From: Patescibacteria group bacterium
GTDB taxonomy: Bacteria > Patescibacteriota > UBA1384 > XYA2-FULL-43-10 > 1-14-0-10-43-13
Direction: 5' to 3'
Assembly: GCA_041649155.1 (NCBI GenBank)
Contig: JBAZNP010000001.1
Location: 558,869 to 622,868 of the forward strand
Length of the DNA: 64,000 nt
This document shows positions 3,580 through 63,589 of the stretch, in pieces. The position numbers were made by a program, and so were the translations under genes. Under the pieces are notes generated by a model. It was not told where the DNA came from and ran no database searches. It saw only the letters and a program-made list of their open reading frames with translations. Numbering within the stretch: position 1 is the stretch's first letter; each line of letters begins with the position of its first letter.

Positions 3580-4701
3580 TTATTGTTTCTCGTCTTTTGT
3601 TTCTTTTTCGCTGTCTTGTTCTATTAATGATTCCAAAATATTTTTCATATTTAAGTGAGCTGGGCAGGCTTCAATACATCGGCCACATCCGGTGCAGAGA
3701 AAGCGTTTGTTTTTGTGATATGATCTTACAAATTTGTGATGATACCAGTTATAAAGGCGATCGACATTTTTTGGTCTGAAATCATAATGATTTTGAATTT
3801 CAGAGAAACGTTTTGCAAAGCACGAATCCCAATTTAAGCATTGCTTACTTTCTCCTGTTAATTCATTTTTGAAGTCCTGTCTTGTGCAGAAGCAAAGGGG
3901 ACATACTGTGGAACAGGCGCCGCAACCGAAACAATTTTCTGAAATTTTATCCCAAAATTCTATATGTTTTTCTTTATTATCGATTATTTTAGAAATATTT
4001 TGTTCTGCAAAAGTTTTCTGGTTTGGTTTTATCTCACTTATCTGCAATTTTTTTTGTGACTGTTTTATGCCATTTTTCTTTAAAATTGCCTCCCCTCTTT
4101 TATTGCCGGAAAAAATGGCGTATTCGTTTTTTTCTTCCTGAACGTGTAAATCAAAAGGTGCCAATTTATTCGTTCCTGTCAAATCGCAAAAGCAATTTTC
4201 GTTTGGAAAGCATTCACTGGAAAATATTAAAATATTTTCTCTTTTGGGCAAGATTTTAGTGTCTGTAAATTCTTCCAATAGGTAATGCAGGGCCCAGACA
4301 TCGCAATTATTTAGACCGATTAGAGCAATTTTATTTGAGGAGTGAAGCGATCGAGAACTATTTCCGTTATTCCCGATCTCCAATTTGTCATTCCCGCCCC
4401 TTACTTTGTCATTCCCGCCCCGATGATTTATCGGGGTAAACATCCGGCGGGAATCTACTATTAGTGGATCACCGACTGGATCGGGGATGACAGAGGTAGC
4501 GTTCGGTTCCAAGAGGTTTGGAAATAAAATTTTCTTGAAAGGAATTATCGGCTTTTTATGACCAAGTTTTAAATCTGATGAGCTATTGAGCGCATCAAAA
4601 ACCAGCTTCCCGTCTTTTAACTGGGTGCCGTAAACTGTGTGAGTTTTTTTAATATAATCAATTAACTGATTTAATTGATGAATGGTTATTTGCGATTCCA
4701 A
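3580..4701 (-). CDS. Hydrogenase beta subunit, 4Fe-4S ferredoxin-domain protein, carrying an in-frame repeat-derived insertion
   Basis: Two Cys clusters: CFGCGACSTVCPLCFC and CTGCGRCIEACP. First gene of the minus-strand cluster. Residues ...INHRGGNDKVRGGNDKLEIGNNGNSS... are encoded by MITE-like repeat sequence at ~4383-4460. Confidence 0.75.
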   Translation of the reverse strand: MESQITIHQLNQLIDYIKKTHTVYGTQLKDGKLVFDALNSSSDLKLGHKKPIIPFKKILFPNLLEPNATSVIPDPVGDPLIVDSRRMFTPINHRGGNDKVRGGNDKLEIGNNGNSSRSLHSSNKIALIGLNNCDVWALHYLLEEFTDTKILPKRENILIFSSECFPNENCFCDLTGTNKLAPFDLHVQEEKNEYAIFSGNKRGEAILKKNGIKQSQKKLQISEIKPNQKTFAEQNISKIIDNKEKHIEFWDKISENCFGCGACSTVCPLCFCTRQDFKNELTGESKQCLNWDSCFAKRFSEIQNHYDFRPKNVDRLYNWYHHKFVRSYHKNKRFLCTGCGRCIEACPAHLNMKNILESLIEQDSEKETKDEKQ

Positions 4702-11410: not shown

Positions 11411-11496
11411 AACAGGAGATAGTGAGCAGTTATAAAATTCGTTATTCGTTAATTCGTATTGCAAATTAACTAGTTAACAAATTAACTATTTTTCAA

Positions 11497-12729
11497 ATGC
11501 AAAGCACATTTTTAAATGTTCTAAAATTTCCTGATTTTAAAAAGATTTGGTTGTCCCAAGTTTTTTCTCAAATTGCTTTAAATATGGTTACTTTTGCTTT
11601 GGTTTTGGATATTTTTGAAAAAACAAAGTCAAATACTTCAATCTCTTTGGTTATGATCGCTTCGGCGATTCCAGTTGCAATATTTGGACCGTTTTCAGGA
11701 GCGATTGCCGACAGAATTTGTTATCGAAAAATCCTCATGTATACTAACATTTTCCGTTTTGTTGCTGCAATTTTGTTGATAGTTGCTCATAGTAATATTT
11801 TGGCTATGCTAGAAATCATTTTTCTAATTTCGGCATTATCGCAATTTTTTACTCCTGCCGAGTCCTCGTCTATTCCTTTAATTGTTCCCAAAGAAAAACT
11901 TGTTCATGCAAATTCTTTGGTCATGACCACAACTTACATAACACTTTTGATCGGTTATGCTTCTGCCGGTCCGATTATGAACTATATTGGTTCTAAATGG
12001 CTTTTTGTAATATGTGCCGGTCTTTTTTTGCTTGCGACCGAGGCTACAAGAATGCTGAGTGATTTTGATAAAAAAGAAAATAAGTTATTGTCGATACAAA
12101 CACTCGCTTCTGATATTGCAGAAATTTGGAAAGAAGTTAAAGACGGTCTTAAATACTTAAGACACAAAAGCAATGTGTTAAATCCAATGATAAAGCTCAC
12201 AATCGGGTGGGCAATGCTTGGAGCGTTCATTACTCTATTGCCTGCTTTTGGTGAAAGTGTACTGAAAATCGCCCCAACGTTTATTGGCCCAACAATAATT
12301 GCACCTGCAGGTTTGGGGATGCTTATTGCAGCTGTCGTGATCAGTAAGAGAACAAAATTGAATCAATTAAAAGTTTTAGACAGCGGATTTCTGATTGCCG
12401 GTATTGGTTTTATTTTCTTTTCATTATATAAGTTTTATGATGCCTTTGAGCTTTCCAAATTATTTTTAATTTTATTGGTAATTGTGCTTGGTTTTGGTTC
12501 GGCGATGATTCAAATTTCTGCCCAAACATTATTACATTTGAATTCAGATGAAGAGCAAAGAGGCCGTGTTTTTGGGATTTCTTCGATGCAGTTGCGCCTA
12601 GCCACTTCTTTGCCGGCTCTAGTCATTGGTGGTGTTGCCGACCTGACTTCACCGCTTGTAACAATGATGATTTTGGCATCATTATTCTTTATTTACTCTT
12701 TCTCACTAATATTTGAAGAAAGAGTATGA
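11497..12729 (+). CDS. MFS-type transporter
   Basis: 12 predicted TM helices; MFS-like motif (GAIADRICYRK) between TM2 and TM3. 410 aa. Confidence 0.75.
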   Translation: MQSTFLNVLKFPDFKKIWLSQVFSQIALNMVTFALVLDIFEKTKSNTSISLVMIASAIPVAIFGPFSGAIADRICYRKILMYTNIFRFVAAILLIVAHSNILAMLEIIFLISALSQFFTPAESSSIPLIVPKEKLVHANSLVMTTTYITLLIGYASAGPIMNYIGSKWLFVICAGLFLLATEATRMLSDFDKKENKLLSIQTLASDIAEIWKEVKDGLKYLRHKSNVLNPMIKLTIGWAMLGAFITLLPAFGESVLKIAPTFIGPTIIAPAGLGMLIAAVVISKRTKLNQLKVLDSGFLIAGIGFIFFSLYKFYDAFELSKLFLILLVIVLGFGSAMIQISAQTLLHLNSDEEQRGRVFGISSMQLRLATSLPALVIGGVADLTSPLVTMMILASLFFIYSFSLIFEERV

Positions 12730-18375: not shown

Positions 18376-18582
18376 TGACTTACTGAATAAAAACTAACTG
18401 TTCGAATACATTGGGGGATTGTTTTTATTCTGTTAAAATTTGCTCTTTGACAACTAAATAGTGATAAGTACGCTTGTTTCAACTCTTTCCACATGAAGGA
18501 GTTGAACAATTCTTTTGAGAGAAAAAAAATTTGATTAGTATAAGAGCTAATCAAACTCATAAATATTTGTATCGTAAGATAC

Positions 18583-20045
<1,463 letters not shown>

Positions 20046-20170
20046 TAAGGAGAATCGTCCATCAATTCAATGATGGTTCGATACGGTCGATCGTCTGATA
20101 TTCGTTCTTGAATATCGAGACGCAAATCCTATGCTAAACCTTAGCATAGGTGCGTACTTTATCACTATTT

Positions 20171-20245
20171 AGTTGCAAAAGAGCTAAAAACAACAGACCT
20201 GCCTGCCGGCAGGCAGGTTACAGATCGTACGAATAATACGAATGC
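20171..20245 (+). repeat. Direct repeat copy 1, flanking the 16S-23S interval (TAAAAACAACAGA + 20-bp palindrome + TACAGATCGTACGAATAATACGAAT)
   Basis: About 85% identical to 41788-41866 in the same orientation. Confidence 0.8.
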
Positions 20246-34903: not shown

Positions 34904-36271
34904 ATGGCTAATTTACGAATGTTAAAAATGAAAATTGGAAAATGGAAAATGAGAATTTCCCGAGTGAAACGCGGGAGCTATTTACCTGTTATTTTAATGG
35001 CCTCGGTTTTGTTTTTGGCTTTTTCGATAGCCATAATCACGCTATCAATGTCAAATGTAAAAATTGCTAACTTGCATAACAAAAAAATCACCTCGATGTC
35101 GATTGCCGAAGCCGGAATAAATTATTATCTTTGGCATTTGGCTCATAATAATGAGGACTATTGTGATGGACAAGCAACATGCGACAGTAATACTTCATTT
35201 AAGCATGATTATACGGATGAAGCCGGTAATGTTTTGGGAACGTATGAACTTTTCATAACTCCGCCATCACTTGGTCAATCTTCTGTTACGGTAAAGTCGG
35301 TGGGCAAGGTTAACGGCACAAGCCCCACTCGCACTATTATCACTACAATCGGAATGCCTTCATTTACTAAATATACTTTGCTTGTAAACGGTGAACAACT
35401 TTGGGTTGGTCCAAGTGAAAGAATTACCGGTACGGTTCACGTTAATGATAGTGGAATATACAACCAAGGTGAAATCACCGGTGACGCTTCATCAACTGAA
35501 TCGACCTATAATAGTTGGAATTGGGGAACTCAGCCGGGTGTGGCAGGATCTGGAATTTATGGCGGATCAAAATCATACCCTATTCCGCGAATTGATTTTA
35601 ATCAAGTGGACGTCGATGTTAAAACGATTAGGGATAATGGGGAAGGGGATTATTATGACAATGCTCCTAGTGGTAGTAGAGGTTATCACATTGTTTTAAA
35701 AACAGATGGTTATGATTTATATAAAGTAACTAATTTCAATAATACAAGACTTAATATTACGGCGGAAACACTTTTGGGCAATCATCGTTATCCGGAAGAT
35801 GGAATTATTTTTCTTGAGGATAGTGTTTGGATTAATGGAACCATTGATAATCAGAAAATAACGATAATTGCTGCTGACCCTGAAAAAAATGGGAATCAGC
35901 GTAAAAGAATTATTATCCCTGATTTATTAAAATATACTAACTTGGACGGTTCTGATAAAATTGGATTAATAACTCAGACCGATATTCTGGTTGCTCAAAC
36001 TGCTCCGTATAACATGGAAATTGATGCTGCCATGATTGCTAAAGATGGGGAAATTAGAATAAACGACTACAGCGGTCTTCATAAAGGCAACATGAAAGTT
36101 TATGGTAGCATGGCTCATAATTCTGGTTTGATTTGGACGTATGATCATGGAAGTGATTGGACGGGATATGCAACTACTGAAACTATTATCGATCAATCAA
36201 ATGTATTAAATCCGCCGCCAAAGTTTCCTTTAACTGGTACATATGAAATATTGAGTTGGCGCGAAGAATAG
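34904..36271 (+). CDS. Pilus assembly / PilX-like protein (N-terminal TM, 455 aa)
   Basis: N-terminal LPVILMASVLFLAFSIAIITLSMSNVKIANL...SIAEAGINYYLWHL resembles the PilX N-terminal domain. Follows two minor-pilin genes. Confidence 0.5.
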   Translation: MANLRMLKMKIGKWKMRISRVKRGSYLPVILMASVLFLAFSIAIITLSMSNVKIANLHNKKITSMSIAEAGINYYLWHLAHNNEDYCDGQATCDSNTSFKHDYTDEAGNVLGTYELFITPPSLGQSSVTVKSVGKVNGTSPTRTIITTIGMPSFTKYTLLVNGEQLWVGPSERITGTVHVNDSGIYNQGEITGDASSTESTYNSWNWGTQPGVAGSGIYGGSKSYPIPRIDFNQVDVDVKTIRDNGEGDYYDNAPSGSRGYHIVLKTDGYDLYKVTNFNNTRLNITAETLLGNHRYPEDGIIFLEDSVWINGTIDNQKITIIAADPEKNGNQRKRIIIPDLLKYTNLDGSDKIGLITQTDILVAQTAPYNMEIDAAMIAKDGEIRINDYSGLHKGNMKVYGSMAHNSGLIWTYDHGSDWTGYATTETIIDQSNVLNPPPKFPLTGTYEILSWREE

Positions 36272-36274
36272 TAA

Positions 36275-36742
36275 AACAACAGATGACGAATAATACAGAT
36301 AATACGAATGACAGAAAAGTAGAACAGCTGATTTATAAGGAGTTGTCTTATAAGCTAGTTGGTCTTGCGTATGAAGTATGCAACACTCTTGGCGAAGGAT
36401 TAAAAGAAGAAGTATATAAAGATGCTTATGCGTTATTACTTGATAAAGAAAAAATTCCTTATGCGAAAGAGTATTATTATTCAATAAAGATAAGAGATGA
36501 AATCATTGCAAAAAGATTCTTTGATTTTTTGATTGATGATAAAATAATAGTTGAATTCAAAGTGGGCGGAAAAGCATATTTTAGTTCTTATAAACAATTA
36601 TTGGAATATCTTAAATCCAGTAAGTATAAATTAGGGTTGATAATCAGGTTTTCGTTAGATGGTGTAAAGATAAAGCGTATCCCAAATTTGTATTAATCAA
36701 CTTAAAAATTAGTATTATTTGTCTTATTAGTAATCTGTTGTT
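36275..36742. mobile_element. TIR-bounded cassette carrying the GxxExxY gene
   Basis: Head AACAACAGATGACGAATAATACAGATAATAC. Tail revcomp AACAACAGATTACTAATAAGACAAATAATAC. Imperfect ~30-bp TIRs. An internally deleted ~90-bp derivative lies at 56588-56677. Confidence 0.65.
36283..36696 (+). CDS. GxxExxY family protein
   Basis: LVGLAYEVCNTLGEGLKEEVYKDAYALLL...IIVEFKVGGKAYFSSYKQLLEYLKSSKYKLGLIIRF matches the GxxExxY/PD-(D/E)xK-like family pattern (GPGFLExxY ... DhhV(E)hK ... LLNYLKxxGLKLGLLINF). Confidence 0.75.
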   Translation: MTNNTDNTNDRKVEQLIYKELSYKLVGLAYEVCNTLGEGLKEEVYKDAYALLLDKEKIPYAKEYYYSIKIRDEIIAKRFFDFLIDDKIIVEFKVGGKAYFSSYKQLLEYLKSSKYKLGLIIRFSLDGVKIKRIPNLY

Positions 36743-36745
36743 CAT

Positions 36746-36937
36746 ATGAAGTTTTTAATTTTTTTAATGTGTGAAGGGCTGGGTTTTGTTTCGATAATTT
36801 ATACAAAATGGCTGGTCGATTCTATCGGCAGATCCCAATTTTTTGAAGAAAAATTGGGCAGTGGTGGAACGTATACTTTCTGGAAGCTACTCGGTGTTGC
36901 ATCAATAATTTTTGGCTTCTTTTATTTGTTTAGTTAA
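36746..36937 (+). CDS. Small hypothetical membrane protein (63 aa)
   Basis: Two TM helices. Followed by a hairpin terminator at 36951-36980. Confidence 0.35.
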   Translation: MKFLIFLMCEGLGFVSIIYTKWLVDSIGRSQFFEEKLGSGGTYTFWKLLGVASIIFGFFYLFS

Positions 36938-36981: not shown

Positions 36982-37057
36982 TGGTGGACCTGAGGAGACT
37001 CGGACTCCTTACCTCAGCAATGCGAATGCTGCGCTCTACCAGATGAGCTACAGGCCC
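36982..37057 (-). tRNA. tRNA-Ala (anticodon CGC), CCA encoded
   Basis: Reverse complement GGGCCTGTAGCTCATCTGGTAGAGCGCAGCATTCGCATTGCTGAGGTAAGGAGTCCGAGTCTCCTCAGGTCCACCA. G3:U70 Ala identity pair. Anticodon loop TTCGCAT. Confidence 0.85.
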
Positions 37058-37577: not shown

Positions 37578-37823
37578 CTAGTCAGAGACTAATAGATGTT
37601 TATTTCTAAATGCCTTGCCAGAGGAGGATTTTAGATAATCCTCAAATCTTGCGGCTAACTCTTTTGTTTCAAACGCCGCATACCACGCTACTTTGACAGG
37701 TCTAAATTTTGAAGTATGCGGAACACCACCAGATTGATGTTTTCCAAATCGCGCCGAGAGATCCTTTGTTGATCCAGCGTAAAAAGTATTATTTGATAAT
37801 TCCAACAAATAAGTATAGTACAT
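37578..37823 (-). CDS. GIY-YIG nuclease superfamily protein (small, YhbQ-like)
   Basis: YYTYLLELSNNTFYAGSTKDLSARFGKHQSGG...ELAARFEDYLKS matches GIY-x10-YVG...R...H...G...E of GIY-YIG domains. Confidence 0.7.
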   Translation of the reverse strand: MYYTYLLELSNNTFYAGSTKDLSARFGKHQSGGVPHTSKFRPVKVAWYAAFETKELAARFEDYLKSSSGKAFRNKHLLVSD

Positions 37824-37973
37824 GCATTTATTATACAAAAAAGTCCAACTTCACTCAAATCAAAGCACATTTGAGCTACGCTGGACAAACTTCTTGCTTG
37901 CCATCCAGAAACACTTAACTGTTTTGAATGGTTTGGCTTGCCAAGCGAAGCCGATGTTCGTGAAGGCGAAGTT

Positions 37974-38049
37974 TGGTGGACCCGACAGGATTCGAACCTG
38001 CGACATCCTCGTTGCAAACGAGGCGCTCTACCAACTGAGCTACGGGCCC
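37974..38049 (-). tRNA. tRNA-Ala (anticodon UGC), CCA encoded
   Basis: Reverse complement GGGCCCGTAGCTCAGTTGGTAGAGCGCCTCGTTTGCAACGAGGATGTCGCAGGTTCGAATCCTGTCGGGTCCACCA. G3:U70 pair. Anticodon loop TTTGCAA. Confidence 0.9.
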
Positions 38050-40755: not shown

Positions 40756-40938
40756 TTAACGATTTTCCGATTTCTTGCCTTCTTCAATAAGCTCCTTGAC
40801 TCTTTGTCCGCCTTTGGTTCCAATCTCAGAATAGAAGCCTCGTCCATATCTCTGGCTCGTGGTTTTTCCGCCCTTCTTGCCACCTTTTCTGCCAGCTTCC
40901 TGTACGCTCATTTGACCCTTGTTATCTTTCATCTGCAT
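40756..40938 (-). CDS. KGG-repeat stress-induced protein (GsiB/YciG-like)
   Basis: MSVQEAGRKGGKKGGKTTSQRYGRGFYSEIGTKGG matches the KGG repeat. Confidence 0.65.
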   Translation of the reverse strand: MQMKDNKGQMSVQEAGRKGGKKGGKTTSQRYGRGFYSEIGTKGGQRVKELIEEGKKSENR

Positions 40939-40975
40939 TTAAAATTCACCTCTTTTCAATTATCCGTTTGAAAAT

Positions 40976-41245
40976 TTACCATTCGTCATATTCACTTTTG
41001 TTTTTTCCTTTGTTCCGTTTCTTATTTTCAGCTTTCTCTCCCTTTTTTATAAGATCCCGTACTTTTTGCCCGCCCTTAGTGCCTATCTCATGATAGAACT
41101 CCGGTCCGTATTCACGACTTGTGGCTCGACCTCCTTTAGTACCTATCTCATGATAGAACTCCGGTCCGTATTCACGACTTGTTGTCCGGCCGCCTTTTTG
41201 TCCTGCTTCCTGTACGGACATTTTAATCTTGCCTTTTTCTGCCAT
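40976..41245 (-). CDS. KGG-repeat stress-induced protein with internal 60-bp tandem duplication
   Basis: TSREYGPEFYHEIGTKGG appears twice, encoded by 41073-41132 and 41133-41192. Confidence 0.65.
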   Translation of the reverse strand: MAEKGKIKMSVQEAGQKGGRTTSREYGPEFYHEIGTKGGRATSREYGPEFYHEIGTKGGQKVRDLIKKGEKAENKKRNKGKNKSEYDEW

Positions 41246-41296
41246 TTTTATCCACCTTGTTCCTAATTAATTATTAAAATAATTAAGTCTAAAAAT

Positions 41297-41503
41297 TTAC
41301 ATGTTCTTGCTTCTTCCACGTCTCTTTCCTCCTTCGCTTTCTTTTCCTTTTTCGATAAGGTCCCTAACTCGGTGTCCGCCTTTAGTACCTATATCATGAT
41401 AAAATTCTGGTCCATGTTCTCGGCTTGTGGTTTGACCTCCTTTTTTGCCGGCCTCCTGTACTGTCATTTGGCCCTTTTTTCCTCGCATTTGCATAATCTT
41501 CAC
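41297..41503 (-). CDS. KGG-repeat stress-induced protein
   Basis: MTVQEAGKKGGQTTSREHGPEFYHDIGTKGGHRVRDL. Confidence 0.65.
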   Translation of the reverse strand: MKIMQMRGKKGQMTVQEAGKKGGQTTSREHGPEFYHDIGTKGGHRVRDLIEKGKESEGGKRRGRSKNM

Positions 41504-41633: not shown

Positions 41634-41788
41634 TTGACATCTTCAAAATAATTAGTTAAGATCTCTTTAGAAACTCTAAAAGAGGTCTATGGTCAATCAC
41701 TACACCAATGAGAGGGGGACAAGCGGATGAGATAAAATAGGGGTATTTTATTTTTTTATCTCAATTATCCGCTGCGGCGGTTTTTTTT
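41634..41788 (+). ncRNA. Candidate small RNA: TTGACA-17-TAAGAT promoter to CCGCTGCGGCGG-T8 terminator (~120 nt transcript)
   Basis: Consensus -35/-10 at 41634-41662. Internal hairpin GAGATAAAA...TTTTATCTC. Intrinsic terminator at 41769-41788. No ORF. Confidence 0.3.
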
Positions 41789-41866
41789 GTCGCAAAAAGC
41801 ATAAAAACAACAGACCTGCCTGCCGGTAGGCAGGTGACAAATCGTACAGATAATACAGATTACGAA
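41788..41866 (+). repeat. Direct repeat copy 2, flanking the 16S-23S interval (with nested palindrome)
   Basis: GCAAAAAGCATAAAAACAACAGA-CCTGCCTGCCGGTAGGCAGG-TGACAAATCGTACAGATAATACAGATTACGAAT. Compare 20171-20245. Confidence 0.8.
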
Positions 41867-42235
41867 TTGTACGAAATATCAGGATAGCAATTGTGAGATA
41901 GGGGCTCACAAGTTGAGATTCTATAGCGCACATTAACAATTAAATAACGCTTTATTAAATATTCAACCACATTTAATAAAGCAAAGAGCAAATATATAAC
42001 TTAAATAATAATATTTGTGTAATTTCAAATTTACCCAGTTAGATGGCGTAAGCTTATCTAACAGGGTGTATATCTTCCGATATAAAAAAATTTCTCAAAA
42101 CAAGTAATTAATATTTCATCCGCCATCTGGCGAGATGGAATCCAGTAATTGCTAGTCAAGATTCTAAGTCGGGCAGTGGGGCAGATACTCAGTAATGAGT
42201 TTTTGCCTTCACTATTCGACCTCTGGAAAAATAAT

Positions 42236-45062
<2,827 letters not shown>

Positions 45063-45293
45063 TATTATTTTTACAATCTTGACTAGTGATTACTGGGTTA
45101 TTCCAGTATTCTTCGAGCGTTTATGATACCGTTCATTGGCTTCCATCTCCTCACCCTTTCTTCGAAAGGATGAGGGACGATGCTGGTGCATCGGATCTAG
45201 CTCAATTTGTTTTCAAATGTGGATGTGGTTTTAGAATAAAGCCTCATCCTGTGTGAAAGCAAAATATTTGCTTTTAAAATTTAAAATAGTTTT

Positions 45294-45536: not shown

Positions 45537-45632
45537 TATTTTACTCCTTATTTTTAGTTGTCAGTTGTCAGTAAATAAGTGAATCAGTTTTTATATAATT
45601 TACAACTGATTTACTTACAACTTACTACTATT

Positions 45633-45992
45633 TTACAGCATTATTGCTTCTCGAAGCAAGGGCAAAACTTCGCCGTAGGATTTTGCTGCGGAACGATGAG
45701 CAGATCTTCCCTTTTCTGTCAGCGAATACATTTTTCTAATTCTTGAGCCAACAGAAATTTCATTTGAAGTTGCGTAACCATCTTTTTCTAACTGATCAAG
45801 AGCTGGGTATATGGTTGATTCGGTTGGTCTGCAAGTCCCTTCGGAAAGTTCTTCAATTCTTTTGACAATTCTATAACCGTAGCTTTCTTTGTCTTTGTAT
45901 AAAACCTTTAAAAGAAAGAATTTAATCAATCCTTGATTGATAAGTTTTCTCCAATAGCCTTCTGAAGTTAAATCCACGTTCGCTCCGTTCAA
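45633..45992 (-). CDS. PadR-family transcriptional regulator
   Basis: LLKVLYKDKESYGYRIVKRIEELSEGTCRPTESTIYPALDQLEKDGYATS winged-helix of PadR type. Confidence 0.75.
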   Translation of the reverse strand: MNGANVDLTSEGYWRKLINQGLIKFFLLKVLYKDKESYGYRIVKRIEELSEGTCRPTESTIYPALDQLEKDGYATSNEISVGSRIRKMYSLTEKGRSAHRSAAKSYGEVLPLLREAIML

Positions 45993-47020: not shown

Positions 47021-47953
47021 ATGCCTGAGTTACCGGAGGTAGAGACGATTAGGCTGGGATTGCAGAAGACTATAGTAGGTAAAAAAATTGAAAAATTTGA
47101 ATCAAGAGATTCAAAAGTTGTTCAGTTTAAGCCCAAAGACGTGGAGGGAATGTATGTTTCTAATATTGAACGACGAGCTAAGATATTAATTCTTTATTTG
47201 AATAGTTCTCGGCCTCTGGCCTCGAACAATAAATATTCTTCGAGCGAAAGCGAGAAGTCCATTCTTTGTCATCTTAAGATGACCGGCCAATTGATTTGGG
47301 AAGCTTGTTCTGGTGGGACTGAATTTTGCCTCAAAAAGAGTCGGGTTGCTGGCGGGCATCCATCACCGGATTGGGTGGCAAAATTACCAAATAATTATAC
47401 GAGAGCAATATTCACTTTTAATGATAAGTCAGTTTTGTTTTTTAACGATTTGCGCAGATTTGGTTATTCAAAACTATATAATACTAAAGATTTGAGTAAT
47501 ATTTCAGAGCTGAAAAAATTAGGTCCGGAGCCCTTTTCTAGTGAATTTACAGTAGAATACCTGATGAGGCGAGCGGCAAAAATACCAAATCGTAAAATCA
47601 AACAGTTTATTACCGATCAGGAGATAATCGCCGGTGTGGGGAATATTTATGTCGATGAGGCTCTTTTTTATGCAGGAATTTTGCCGACAAGGCCGGCGAA
47701 GGATATAAAATTATCGGAATGGCAGAAAATTCGCGATTCAATAATTAAAGCCTTGGAACTTGGTCTAAAATACGGCGGATCTTCCGAAGATACTTATGTC
47801 GACGCATTTGGTAATCAGGGGACAATGAACGAGCATTGCAATGTTTACAGGAGGACGGGCCAAAAGTGCAACAGAAACGGCTGTCAGGGCACTGTGAAGC
47901 GCATCGTACTAGGTGGTAGGGGCACGCATTTCTGTGAAAAATGCCAAAGTTAG
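47021..47953 (+). CDS. mutM: Formamidopyrimidine-DNA glycosylase (Fpg/Nei family)
   Basis: N-terminal MPELPEVE (catalytic Pro2/Glu3). H2TH region. C-terminal zinc finger CNVYRRTGQKCNRNGCQGTVKRIVLGGRGTHFCEKCQ. Confidence 0.85.
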   Translation: MPELPEVETIRLGLQKTIVGKKIEKFESRDSKVVQFKPKDVEGMYVSNIERRAKILILYLNSSRPLASNNKYSSSESEKSILCHLKMTGQLIWEACSGGTEFCLKKSRVAGGHPSPDWVAKLPNNYTRAIFTFNDKSVLFFNDLRRFGYSKLYNTKDLSNISELKKLGPEPFSSEFTVEYLMRRAAKIPNRKIKQFITDQEIIAGVGNIYVDEALFYAGILPTRPAKDIKLSEWQKIRDSIIKALELGLKYGGSSEDTYVDAFGNQGTMNEHCNVYRRTGQKCNRNGCQGTVKRIVLGGRGTHFCEKCQS

Positions 47954-48094
47954 AATTATGAATTTAGAATTAGGAATCATGGGGCGGAAAATATACATTG
48001 AATATCAATCAGTATTCAGATAAAATATTACTAGTTTATTGAAATGCTTGATTCTAGATTCTTGATTCTAGAATCTGGCTAAAAAGGAATTATT

Positions 48095-49378: not shown

Positions 49379-49429
49379 TCTTAGTTGTCAGTTGTCAGTA
49401 AATAAGTTGTAAGTTATTTAAGGAATATT

Positions 49430-56450: not shown

Positions 56451-56587
56451 AATTATCGTTTTCTGTACTGCATAAATTAGCATTTACTATTATTGTCCAC
56501 AAATTTGTGGAGAGAAGGGTTGTTGACGATGGGGCAAGTAAGCACTAAACTGGTAAGTAGTGGGTGACAGTGGGAAAAGGTGGGAGA

Positions 56588-56677
56588 ACAACAGATGACG
56601 AATTATACAGATAATACAAATATTGGAATTCAAATTCGTCATTAGTATTATTAGTTTTTATTAGTAATCTGTAGTTT
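56588..56677. mobile_element. Internally deleted (MITE-like) derivative of the GxxExxY TIR cassette
   Basis: Head AACAACAGATGACGAATTATACAGATAATACAAAT plus tail TAGTATTATTAGTTTTTATTAGTAATCTGTAGTT. Same ends as 36275-36742 but only ~90 bp long. Encodes the remnant MTNYTDNTNIGIQIRH*. Confidence 0.6.
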
Positions 56678-57113: not shown

Positions 57114-57170
57114 AACAACAGATTACAGATCATACGAATAATACAGATTACAAATTGGACAGATAATATT
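57114..57170. repeat. Solo TIR-like copy of the GxxExxY-cassette end (AACAACAGATTACAGATCATACGAATAATACAGATTACAAAT), immediately after the mraZ stop
   Basis: Related to the heads at 36275 and 56588 and to the rRNA-flanking repeats. Confidence 0.55.
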
Positions 57171-57344
57171 AATAATGAATATCGCATCTTAACAATTTTA
57201 TTTAAATAAGTAGCCAACAAACACCTTGTGAGTTCATTTAGAAGCTGTACGAACAGCACACGGAGGAGGGTTCCTATTCATAGAATGGGAACAAGCGAAG
57301 GAGGGCATCATCCTCCTACACTCAGGTTTGGTTCGAGGACTACG

Positions 57345-57364
57345 CCTGCCTGCCGGCAGGCAGG
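57345..57364. repeat. 20-bp perfect palindrome CCTGCCTGCCGGCAGGCAGG (solo copy)
   Basis: Same palindrome at 7026-7045, 20198-20217, 34256-34276 (1 mismatch) and 41815-41834 (1 mismatch). Confidence 0.85.
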
Positions 57365-57546
57365 TCCACGCAGCCAAAACTTCGTTTTGGAGGATTTCAC
57401 GGCAAAACTATCAAAAAATAGTCGAGCTCAAAAACAAAAACTTTATTTTTATAGGCACGTTCTGGGTGCATAAAACAAAAAAGTTGGCTACTGATTTTAA
57501 TAAAATTGTAAATCTTTGTTTTTTTAATTTCTTATTGGGAGGGAAA

Positions 57547-62085: not shown

Positions 62086-63516
62086 ATGAGCAATCTCGAT
62101 TTAAAAGATAAAAAGGTCGCTATTTTGGGGTTAGGCATTGAAGGCATGGCTCTTTTGAAGTATCTCGATGGCAAAACTTCAAATATAACTATTCTGGATC
62201 GTCTTTCTGTTTCGGAAATTATTCAAAATTTAGAAGAAGGCGAAAGAGCTGACGCAGAAAACCTGATCAGAAAATATAAAATCATATCCGGTGAAAAATA
62301 TATGGATGATCTTTCTGGTTTTGACGTAGTATTTCGTTCTCCTGGTATTTCCATTAACCATCCCAAATTACAAGAAGCTGAAGAAAAAGGTGCAATCATT
62401 TCCAGTCAGATTAAACTGTTTTTCGATCTTTGTCCGGCCATGATTATCGGCGTAACCGGAACTAAGGGAAAGGGAACGACTTCTTCTTTAATATTTGAAA
62501 TATTAAAGAAGAGTTCTCAGTTCTCAGTTCTCAGTTCTCAGTCAAATCCCAACGTTTATATTGCCGGCAATATTGGTTATCCTGCTATAACGTTGATACC
62601 TCAATTGAAAAGTGATGATATTGTCATACTTGAACTCTCTAGTTTTCAGTTGATGGATTTGGAAAAGAGTCCTCATATGGCGGTTGTCACCAACCTGACA
62701 GTTGATCATCTGGACTATCATAAAGATGTTGATGAATATCAAGATGCAAAGAAAAGTATCTTAAAATTTCAGAGCAAAAATGATTTCGCTGTATTGAATA
62801 GTGACTCAACATTTGATTCTGACTTTATTAATAATGAGACAAGATCCAGTATTAAATATTTTTCTCATACCGAAGATAAAGACGCCGTAGTTAAGGACGG
62901 AAAAGTAGTTTTGGATCCAAAAAACAAAAGTATTACGATTTGTGACGAAAATAATATCAAACTTTTTGGGCGGCATAATCTTGAAAATATTGCTGCAGCT
63001 TCCATTGTCGCTGAGATATTAGGAGTTGATTTTGATGTTATTAAAAAAGTTGTGGCTGAATTTAAAGGTCTGCCTCATCGTCTGGAGTTGGTTTCTGAGA
63101 TTGATGGCATCAAATTTATCAATGATTCTTTCGCCACTAATCCCGAACCAACAATTGCTGCTGTGGATTCATTTTCCGAAAATAAAGTTCTAATACTCGG
63201 CGGAAGCAGCAAAGGTGCAAATTTTGATGAATTATCAAAAAAAATTGTTAAGTCCAATGTTTCTAGTGTAGTGACAATTGGGATTGAGGGAGAAAAAATT
63301 GAAAATTCACTTAGTAAGAATAAGTATGACGGCACGATAATTCAAGGTGGAAATTCAATTGAAGAAATTATCGTTAATGCCAAAAAACTAGCAAAAAGTG
63401 GAGACGTTATTATTTTTTCTCCTGCCTGTGCCAGTTTTGATATGTTTAAAAATTATAAAGATAGAGGTGAGAAGTTTAAGGACAGTGTCCTTAAACTTCA
63501 GAATCATGAATCATGA
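62086..63516 (+). CDS. murD: UDP-N-acetylmuramoylalanine--D-glutamate ligase
   Basis: GLGIEG N-terminal Rossmann and GVTGTKGKGTT P-loop. Contains a (AGTTCTC)x4 heptanucleotide tract at ~62512-62541. Confidence 0.9.
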   Translation: MSNLDLKDKKVAILGLGIEGMALLKYLDGKTSNITILDRLSVSEIIQNLEEGERADAENLIRKYKIISGEKYMDDLSGFDVVFRSPGISINHPKLQEAEEKGAIISSQIKLFFDLCPAMIIGVTGTKGKGTTSSLIFEILKKSSQFSVLSSQSNPNVYIAGNIGYPAITLIPQLKSDDIVILELSSFQLMDLEKSPHMAVVTNLTVDHLDYHKDVDEYQDAKKSILKFQSKNDFAVLNSDSTFDSDFINNETRSSIKYFSHTEDKDAVVKDGKVVLDPKNKSITICDENNIKLFGRHNLENIAAASIVAEILGVDFDVIKKVVAEFKGLPHRLELVSEIDGIKFINDSFATNPEPTIAAVDSFSENKVLILGGSSKGANFDELSKKIVKSNVSSVVTIGIEGEKIENSLSKNKYDGTIIQGGNSIEEIIVNAKKLAKSGDVIIFSPACASFDMFKNYKDRGEKFKDSVLKLQNHES

Positions 63517-63589
63517 ATTAGGAATTAAGCAGGTTGTTTTATTCTTATCAAATACATGATTCATAATTCGTAATTCATTATTCTAAACC

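Follow-up and report, generated by a model that had tools for sequence, protein, structure and literature searches.

The nuclease cassette and its setting

We describe here a small nuclease cassette at positions 36275–36742 of a 64-kb stretch of contig JBAZNP010000001.1 from a Patescibacteria group bacterium (hereafter the window, by which we mean the whole stretch of 64,000 nucleotides that was analysed). The cassette consists of a single open reading frame (ORF, 36283–36696) enclosed by an inverted repeat of 35 nt (36275–36309 / 36708–36742), with arms that are 86% complementary, 398 nt apart and identical over their outermost 10 nt. An earlier note on this DNA had placed a GxxExxY gene between imperfect terminal inverted repeats (TIRs) at this position, and both the repeat and the letters of its arms are as quoted there. 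The head arm starts 3 nt past the stop codon of an upstream 455-aa gene (TAG at 36269–36271, followed by TAA) and the tail arm ends 3 nt short of the ATG (36746) of a downstream 63-aa membrane-protein ORF. The ATG of the nuclease ORF lies inside the head arm, and about ten N-terminal residues of the protein (MTNNTDNTND) are the head arm in translation. The flanks (TAGTAA on the left, CATATG on the right) hold no target-site duplication. A scan for promoters and terminators in and around the cassette finds nothing above shuffled sequence, and no promoter, terminator or Shine-Dalgarno sequence of the cassette's own is evident. The predicted fold of 36265–36752 closes on both arms with −105.5 kcal/mol (z = −4.3); in Rfam the cassette has no family at the gathering threshold or at E ≤ 1, and only weak terminator-like or generic-hairpin matches occur elsewhere. 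There is no transposase among the genes called in the 18 kb around the cassette.

The encoded protein matches the GxxExxY family (TIGR04256) with 89.5 bits against a cut-off of 35 and PDDEXK_3 (PF13366) with 81.4 bits against a cut-off of 22, in both cases over the full length of the profile, and these are its only Pfam and NCBIfam matches. The GxxExxY motif (G39-E42-Y45) and the triad D81, E91 and K93 are invariant in an alignment of 22 sequences, and the protein has the restriction-endonuclease-like PD-(D/E)XK fold. It is encoded by the only GxxExxY gene in the window. At E ≤ 1e-5 there are 175 homologues, the nearest of which start with MTNHTNNTN or MTDKTDITDKT, i.e., with the same array in translation (see the next section). 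A sequence search of the PDB returned no relative with a solved structure, searches of viral_contigs and phage collections returned no GxxExxY relatives, and the defence models of PADLOC match neither the nuclease nor its neighbours. GxxExxY/PDDEXK_3 is a large family that spans many phyla and has barely been written about: full-text searches on GxxExxY, PDDEXK_3 and PF13366 returned incidental mentions and one superfamily survey, in which the function is given as "Unknown" (PMC3424549). In the searchable literature, including the work on palindromic repeats of Bacteroides and of the candidate phyla radiation (CPR), we found no description of a nuclease within inverted arrays.

Arms built from degenerate heptamers

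Each arm is built from a conserved terminal box of 10–15 nt followed by 3–6 degenerate heptamers of the form WACNRAT (core AC[N][R]AT) at a spacing of about 9 nt, and the unit period ranges from 7 to 11 nt across arrays. A single arm is a direct array of heptamers and is not itself a stem-loop. The arms are degenerate heptamer arrays and not the TIRs of a classical transposon. A chance origin of the arms in the window is excluded, since the 17-mer AACAACAGATKACKAAT occurs 6 times with at most 3 mismatches where 1.0 is expected (0 of 100 shuffles reach 6) and arrays of at least three AC[N][AG]AT units number 8, against 0.18 in shuffles. Readings of the unit as a CsrA, Hfq, DnaA-box or −10-box sequence were considered and set aside, as its core positions do not agree with them.

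A bracket common to the gene family

A scan of metagenomes gave 80 loci with homologues of the nuclease at 37–73% identity (labelled with L-numbers below). Each gene was given a flank score from an alignment of the sequence upstream of it with the reverse-complemented sequence downstream, in a scored set of 77 (76 metagenome loci and the window) with 205 other ORFs of the same loci as controls. The median inverted-repeat score is 40 at GxxExxY loci and 17 at control ORFs; 92% of the 77 loci lie above the 95th percentile of the controls (Mann-Whitney p = 3e-33), and when the null is made of mismatched flanks, 53 of 78 score above its 95th percentile. In 344 kb of metagenome loci, 98 of 116 arrays fall within 200 nt of a GxxExxY gene, a density about 24-fold over that elsewhere. 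The gene with its two inverted arms is a discrete, recurring unit and not a chance palindrome, in support of the earlier note. Neither of the two findings that the note named as refutations was obtained: the similarity of head and tail recurs, and homologues in relatives carry flanking inverted repeats of their own.

The heptamers TACTAAT, TACGAAT, TACAAAT and TACAGAT are enriched 28- to 49-fold in the gene flanks of the metagenome loci and are strictly oriented inward. The terminal boxes vary by sublineage (AACAACAGAT, which is the box of the window, ACCCTACTAAATTAC, AAATGGAT.. and TTCAATACAAGAT..), and some sublineage boxes end in ...GTAG(GGT). Neighbouring genes are mostly co-directional with the nuclease gene (37 of 41 upstream, 29 of 38 downstream). 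The head follows the stop codon at a median distance of about 2 nt, and the tail precedes the start codon by a median of about 4 nt. The cassettes fill the stop-to-start gap within co-directional strings of genes.

Constraint on the arms

Arm identity within loci is 87.5% overall. Head and tail of one locus are alike at 0.89, against 0.84 (heads) and 0.80 (tails) between orthologues, and the difference widens in the synteny group of the window, where identity within loci is 0.86–0.96 and that between diverged orthologues (the window or L045 against L046 or L047) is 0.58–0.79; the closest orthologous pair, the window and L045, has arm identities of 0.89 and 0.91. That arms stay alike within a locus while orthologous arms diverge is concerted evolution.

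Mismatches between arms are massed at one position of the unit, with rates of.02 at A,.03 at C,.36 at N,.07 at R,.01 at A and.04 at T, and.19 in the spacer. This pattern fits sequence-specific recognition in which one position goes unread, together with homogenisation at the DNA level. Sense-compatible mismatches number 40 and antisense-compatible ones 48, with no bias to G-U wobble. A signature of arm pairing in RNA was looked for and rejected, there being no excess of G-U on the sense strand, and conservation that follows the position in the motif does not fit selection for such pairing.

Gene-less and solo copies

The members of the array family in the window are collected in Table 1. Two of them are complete palindromic units and three are solo arms, and the arms are 81–94% alike.

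Table 1. Cassette features and further array-family members in the window.
Feature	Position	Strand	Remarks
Head arm of cassette	36275..36309	+	Terminal box AACAACAGAT, then 4 units (ACAGAT, ACGAAT, ACAGAT, ACGAAT) at 9-nt spacing
GxxExxY / PDDEXK_3 nuclease gene, 137 aa	36283..36696	+	
Tail arm of cassette	36708..36742	-	Reverse complement of head (AACAACAGATTACTAATAAGACAAATAATACTAAT)
Gene-less 90-bp palindrome	56587..56676		Head array 56591-56621, tail array 56634-56672
Solo head array, 6 units	57114..57164	+	Starts 2 nt past mraZ stop
Solo head	20189..20243	+	145 nt downstream of 16S rRNA gene; box AACAACAGA, 3-unit array
Solo head	41806..41867	+	365 nt upstream of 23S rRNA gene; same GC palindrome insert (41815-41834)
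Weak family member, 3-unit array (ACGAAT x3), tail orientation	11437..11457	-	40 nt upstream of ATG of ORF 11497-12729

The gene-less copy of about 90 bp that the earlier note reported upstream of mraZ lies in the mraZ leader, after the MraZ boxes GTGGG (56560, 56570, 56580) and before the mraZ ATG (56680). Its head reads ATG ACG AAT TAT ACA GAT AAT ACA AAT and so still encodes MTNYTDNTN, as had been stated. Its flanks (GTGGGAG and TATATG) hold no target-site duplication, and its fold is modestly better than that of shuffles (z = −2.2). Alignment of the head and tail copies shows that the arms are related and that the cassette and the 90-bp palindrome have in common a head variant, GACGAAT, and a tail variant, TACTAAT. 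Because they share variants specific to head and to tail, the two are paralogous whole units and not independent assemblies. A gene-less copy with the same boxes as a cassette of the same genome also occurs at L084 (4113–4195).

All three solo heads of the earlier note are present, with the qualification that its positions 20219 and 41837 mark only the array parts of the heads that begin at 20189 and 41806. In both, the terminal box AACAACAGA stands 30 nt upstream of the position given in the note, and an inserted GC palindrome of 20 nt, CCTGCCTGCCGGCAGGCAGG, parts it from the array. In the former (palindrome at 20198–20217) the box is at the same time the 3' end of the stem that flanks 16S (18429–18467 / 20159–20197). 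Both heads lie within a 72-nt direct repeat (20168–20239 / 41785–41856, 85% identity). The two copies near the rRNA genes exist, then, but are duplicates and cannot be counted as independent.

Several observations were made around these copies. The mraZ leader holds a likely promoter (56523–56584, TTGACG-N17-TAAACT) that is followed by the three GTGGG boxes, spaced 10 nt apart and conserved in L125–L129. The GC palindrome CCTGCCTGCCGGCAGGCAGG, perfect over 20 nt, has five copies in the AT-rich window (7026, 20198, 34257, 41815, 57345) and occurs also in L126 and L128; it is repeatedly inserted inside array elements or other repeats and looks like an independent family of mini-repeats, and a second type, CCGCCAGCTGGCGG, is found in the relatives L006 and L046. 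The 16S (18585–20044) and 23S (42232–45069) genes are 22 kb apart (region 18585–45411), and the interval holds protein genes as well as tRNA-Ile(GAT) and tRNA-Ala(TGC), which are encoded on the opposite strand. The 72-nt direct repeat brackets this interval and duplicates the 3' flank of 16S.

Inheritance, loss and turnover

The metagenome loci sort into roughly 10–15 conserved neighbourhoods. L045, L046 and L047 are orthologous to the locus of the window, and gene and arms have been kept at this site over 58–73% protein identity; syntenic conservation is seen in this group and in about 10 others. The cassette is thus mostly inherited vertically at syntenic sites and is not recently transposed. 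A motif scan of genome contigs returned the relatives CAYIJI01 and CAYPDD01 together with about 30 chance matches. The nearest relative found is L042, from the CPR metagenome-assembled genome CAYIJI01, with 83% identity in the upstream gene (73% for L047 and 63% for L046). At the orthologous site L042 has no GxxExxY gene and instead has a degenerate palindrome of about 130 bp formed by a head and a tail array. Since the gene is absent there and present in the more distant L045, L046 and L047, parsimony indicates a loss, and since the palindrome was kept, gene-less palindromes can be deletion derivatives. This presence and absence at orthologous loci, together with the variants shared by the cassette and the 90-bp copy, supports the proposal of the earlier note that the latter is internally deleted.

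Related cassettes with 73–77% DNA identity are also found in unrelated contexts (L108 and L114; L110 and L120), and their homology does not extend outward past the arms, which means that relocation occurs as well. An apparent inversion of a cassette in place (L050 compared with L063–L073) was discarded, as it proved to be two different cassettes 1 kb apart in a rearranged neighbourhood. The search for target-site duplications, carried out at the cassette, the 90-bp copy, L084, L108, L114, L078 and L109, found none at any copy inspected, and the annotated neighbours in seven finished records include no transposase. A classical TIR element or miniature inverted-repeat transposable element (MITE), as first proposed for this cassette, is not supported, the arms being heptamer arrays. 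With no duplication and no transposase found at the cassettes inspected and with mostly vertical inheritance, the term MITE describes the shape of the element and not a demonstrated mechanism.

At the mraZ-leader site of relatives with 79–90% MraZ identity, L128 has a diverged orthologous palindrome, L125 a solo head, L129 nothing, and L126 a different palindrome that carries a GC-palindrome insertion. The solo site after mraZ is occupied in L006 by four tandem heads (26-nt copies, 136–248), and heads are likewise amplified in tandem in L047 (three 41-nt copies upstream of 477) and L042 (two, 3760–3819), which suggests slippage or unequal recombination within the arrays. The variety of array states at the conserved mraZ locus means that arrays turn over faster than gene order. 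Solo arrays that follow stop codons are in sense orientation in 16 cases and antisense in 4. Such a polarity is to be expected if the spacer was formerly occupied by whole elements of which the solo arrays are the gene-proximal halves.

The layout in other phyla

To look beyond the CPR, we surveyed finished plasmid and chromid records. In Bacteroides finegoldii, TTCACCACAGAGGACGCAGAGGACACGGAG and its inverse stand on either side of a GxxExxY gene (score 45, unit array TTCACCACAGAGGACGCAGAGG) that lies between radA and the gene of a FAD protein; in Sphingomonas the gene lies between fabD and fabG within the bracket TTCACGCGAAGGCGCGAGGACGCGA (score 41, unit array TTCACGCGAAGGCGCGAGG), and in Bernardetia between ade and manC within AACACAGAGATAAGGAGAACCACAGAGA (score 36, unit array AACACAGAGAT...). 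Two GxxExxY genes of Gemmatirosa are followed by palindromes, with CGCGGAT units in one case and CGCAGAGGA units in the other, and Treponema has a repeat of a single unit. These arrays share a unit pattern of approximately YRCRRAK at a spacing of about 9 nt over GC contents from 32% to 72%, and the arm of Bacteroides is 94% identical over 32 nt to the arrays of Gemmatirosa. The only component common to these loci from different phyla is the nuclease.

The dispersed, gene-less form is also found here. On two megaplasmids of Gemmatirosa the two array families occupy at least 79 places and 18 places, as compared with 3 tblastn places for the gene; both families are also found next to a GxxExxY gene, and spurious ORFs with low-complexity translations read through the arrays. 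For the Bacteroides arm, copies are present in 13 records of that genus. Among them are gene-less palindromes in two spacers, that of gmd and fcl and that of dnaN and an exonuclease gene, which reach from near the stop codon on the upstream side almost to the start codon that follows. Gene-less dispersed copies are thus found in three phyla and the layout of nuclease and arrays in at least four.

Other repeats and spacer features

The spacers of the window and its relatives hold further features, which we give as observations in their own right. Between mraZ and an ftsL-like ORF, in the usual place of rsmH, lies a conserved non-coding element (57189–57512) with a closing stem of 20–30 bp (GTAGCCAAC...GTTGGCTAC) and the conserved internal blocks CACGGAGGAGGG, ATGGAGGGG and CAAAAACAAAAAC. 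It is present in L006, L125, L126, L128 and L129, two of its stem pairs covary (4 sequences) and it has no Rfam match; we consider it a candidate structured RNA. On the minus strand at 40775–41477, repeats with a 60-nt period (two copies at 41070–41197, 88% matches) run over small minus-strand ORFs, with dispersed direct repeats of 43–107 nt across the region and, in L001, weak LEA_5 and faint KGG Pfam matches in one ORF. The product is probably a repeat-containing stress-type protein.

A GIY-YIG ORF of 86 aa lies at 37578–37838 (minus strand) between two tRNA-Ala genes (36982–37057 and 37974–38049), with no array arms evident. The GIY-YIG gene of L122, to which we return below, is directly flanked in inverted orientation by hairpins of the GTCATTCC-N-GGAATGAC type. 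Hairpin repeats of this type and of the GTCATCCCGAGCAGAG... type form further families in the spacers of the window (6044, 10028, 12799, 34197, 51689, 54773; 6954/11364; 9406/11294). Spacer arrays of the GTCAGT/ATCAGT and GAAT types (e.g., ATGAATCATGAATTAGGAAT) occur at 45548–45640, 49383–49399, 47950–48076 and 63500–63583 and in L126, sometimes as inverted pairs on the two sides of a gene or element, and GTAACTT/GAAACTT arrays surround the thioredoxin-reductase gene in L084 (2200–3260).

Interpretation

Our tentative reading, to which we would give a little less than an even chance, is that the cassette is an instance of a family-wide architecture of nuclease and inverted arrays that works much as REPtrons and TIRtrons do (compared in the last section). 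Under this reading a single resident nuclease gene would have at its flanks the repeat whose non-autonomous palindromic copies are scattered over the genome. The arrays would be protein-recognition sites read by the encoded nuclease, which may cut or recombine at them, and such action would explain how they spread, are amplified in tandem, evolve in concert and decay. The cassette has long been inherited vertically, with occasional loss and occasional occurrence in new contexts, and loss leaves behind gene-less palindromes and solo arrays. The reading builds on the anatomy of the cassette, its specificity for one gene family, the motif-structured conservation of its arms, its vertical inheritance and loss, and its dispersed gene-less copies, all of which are documented above.

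A broader and more doubtful proposal is that GxxExxY nucleases in general are the dedicated enzymes of a hitherto unrecognised class of dispersed palindromic array repeats found across phyla (units of about YRCRRAK at 9-nt spacing). This would be a functional analogue, with a PD-(D/E)XK nuclease in place of the tyrosine transposase, of the pairing of REP-associated tyrosine transposases (RAYTs) with REPINs (REP, repetitive extragenic palindromic). If true, this would explain the "odd" locations of GxxExxY genes inside operons, the short palindromes between housekeeping genes in genomes of Bacteroides, Gemmatimonadota and the CPR, and the low-complexity translations of arrays that appear as MTNNTDNTND and MTDKTDITDKT N-termini and as the spurious ORFs of Gemmatirosa. 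The architecture itself accounts for recurrent short palindromes and spurious ORFs in spacers of Bacteroides and the CPR. It also offers, as a hallmark in the DNA, a testable hypothesis for the substrate of GxxExxY nucleases, namely arrays of YRCRRAK heptamers, and it flags the mraZ leader and the rRNA flanks as sites where the elements may affect expression.

Several observations weigh against the idea of a nuclease that reads its own arrays. Some 8% of the metagenome loci lack the bracket, with scores under the 95th percentile of the controls; the flanking repeats in Fusobacteria and Prevotella are direct and not inverted, and the GxxExxY locus of Persicobacter has no flanking bracket. In 57 kb of CAYIJI01 (loci picked for the motif) there are 13 arrays and no GxxExxY gene, and the 90-bp palindrome of the window has stayed empty. 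The fold of the nuclease is a generic PD-(D/E)XK one. At L122 (2222–2875) head and tail arrays bracket a GIY-YIG ORF (2455–2745), the head array (2222–2245) just past the stop codon of the glycyl-tRNA synthetase gene and the tail array (2839–2875) just before the next ATG; this ORF has the top flanking-repeat score among the 205 controls, and the arms are accordingly not strictly dependent on a GxxExxY cargo. Other genes of these genomes have short-motif arrays of different families (GTCAGT, GAAT, GTAACTT) at their flanks, so that array-type spacers are possibly a broader feature of them.

The strongest of the alternatives, although we think it unlikely, is that the array palindromes are older, independent repeats that serve as landing pads, with small selfish nuclease genes (GxxExxY, GIY-YIG) inserting at their centres as targets that are neutral and present in many copies. 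Spread would then occur by homing, as empty palindromes are cut and repaired from an occupied copy with the arms serving as homology. This would account for the gene standing at the exact centre of the palindrome, for an empty form with matching head and tail variants in the same genome, for the GIY-YIG gene within the same kind of arms at L122, and for the Gemmatirosa palindromes that far exceed the genes (at least 79 and 18 places to 3 tblastn places). Sporadic presence of the gene between conserved neighbours is also what free-standing homing endonuclease genes display, and the missing target-site duplication is expected for repair-mediated copying. However, the one locus that can be polarised shows loss and not gain, the empty palindrome of the window is unfilled though a cassette with nearly identical arms lies 20 kb away, and the two cassettes 1 kb apart at L050 differ in arm sequence. 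The proportion of arrays that stand at the gene (98 of 116) is likewise hard to square with a repeat that is mainly independent.

Less probable still is an element that acts in RNA, where a stem of head and tail around the nuclease ORF in a polycistronic transcript would let the operon put up with the insertion, whether by sequestering the start codon, by RNase III cleavage (cf. the intervening sequences of rRNA) or by bringing the stop codon beside the downstream start. Mostly co-directional neighbours, arms that abut stop and start codons, a cassette with no predicted promoter or terminator, an ATG within the head and a fold of 36265–36752 that closes on the arms (z = −4.3) are all in keeping with this. 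It is the pattern of change in the arms that speaks against it, since the mismatches have no G-U bias on the sense strand (40 against 48) and conservation goes by motif position, with one free position, and not by pairing. Solo arms with no partner are moreover common and stable at orthologous sites, the fold of the 90-bp palindrome reaches only z = −2.2, and there is no Rfam match.

We regard a classical non-autonomous TIR transposon, i.e., a cargo-carrying MITE with an internally deleted copy and a transposase acting in trans, as improbable. Such an element would explain terminal inverted repeats that are best conserved over the outermost 10–15 nt, the short palindromic derivative with solo ends, and the homology of L108/L114 and L110/L120 that stops at the outer arm ends. 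It is at odds with the absence of a target-site duplication at every copy inspected, with inspected cassettes that have no transposase called or annotated in their surroundings, with arms that amplify in tandem as arrays do (threefold in L047, fourfold in L006) and with gene and arms kept in synteny across 58–73% protein identity, and one transposase family would poorly explain different arm sequences in four phyla. Least probable of all is that the arrays are regulatory or structural spacers of compact host genomes whose association with GxxExxY is coincidental: the other array families at other genes and the polarity of solo arrays after stop codons (16 sense, 4 antisense) would suit this, but array density is about 24-fold higher at GxxExxY genes, control ORFs are without flanking inverted repeats, and the association recurs in unrelated phyla of very different GC content.

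Comparison with known systems

TIGR-Tas arrays resemble those described here in being short-period, poorly conserved arrays in CPR genomes (PMC12045711). A TIGR-Tas identity was rejected, since that system has 36-nt dual-spacer units and a Tas protein with a Nop domain (PMC12045711), as opposed to the 7–11-nt period, 3–6 units and PD-(D/E)XK neighbour found here. The intervening sequences of 23S rRNA are similar in that a small ORF lies within complementary arms, and arm-like copies do occur near the rRNA genes of the window. The cassette, in contrast, is situated between protein genes, and the copies at the rRNA flanks lie beyond the mature rRNAs. These match their Rfam models uninterrupted, 16S from 1 to 1533 and 23S from 1 to 2925.

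The transcribed palindromic MITEs Correia/NEMIS, ERIC/IRU, RUP and BOX have defined TIRs and usually a duplication of TA or another target. Like the gene-less copies here, they are palindromes of about 70–150 bp in spacers and operon leaders that occur in solo and composite forms. They differ in that they are not known to carry a gene or to be tied to a PD-(D/E)XK family, and a target duplication is not seen in our case.

Free-standing homing endonuclease genes, for example the Seg and Mob genes of phages, and the PD-(D/E)XK homing enzyme I-Ssp6803I offer a further parallel. As in the present cassettes, a small nuclease gene lies precisely between conserved co-directional genes, is sporadic, and has neither transposase nor target-site duplication. 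Homing genes are not known to have an inverted-array bracket or dispersed gene-less derivatives. The GxxExxY gene here has been kept at one locus over deep divergence.

The closest likeness is to REPtrons and TIRtrons, in which a RAYT gene is flanked by REP sequences or REPINs or by long TIRs and REPINs are dispersed through the genome (PMC3337134, PMC3733652, PMC3116915). The enzyme gene there is low-copy and vertically inherited, and each enzyme has its own type of repeat (PMC3337134, PMC3733652). Here, too, a small enzyme gene lies between inverted copies of a repeat, and the same genome holds this repeat in dispersed form, without a gene, as palindromic doublets and as singletons; such dispersal is seen in the window, L084, Bacteroides and Gemmatirosa. 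The repeats are mostly just downstream of genes, and the enzyme gene is associated with its own repeat type, low in copy number and largely inherited vertically. The enzyme, on the other hand, is a PD-(D/E)XK nuclease of about 125 aa and not an HUH/Y1 transposase such as the IS200/IS605-like RAYT, and the arms are arrays of heptamers at 7–11-nt spacing where a REP is one GC-rich stem-loop with a GTAG (or CGTC) tag. Because enzyme type and repeat structure both set it apart, we describe the cassette not as a REPtron but, tentatively, as REPtron-like in its working. As such, it would add a second and mechanistically different case to the long-lived, vertically inherited associations of enzyme and repeat of which REPIN-RAYT is the type.

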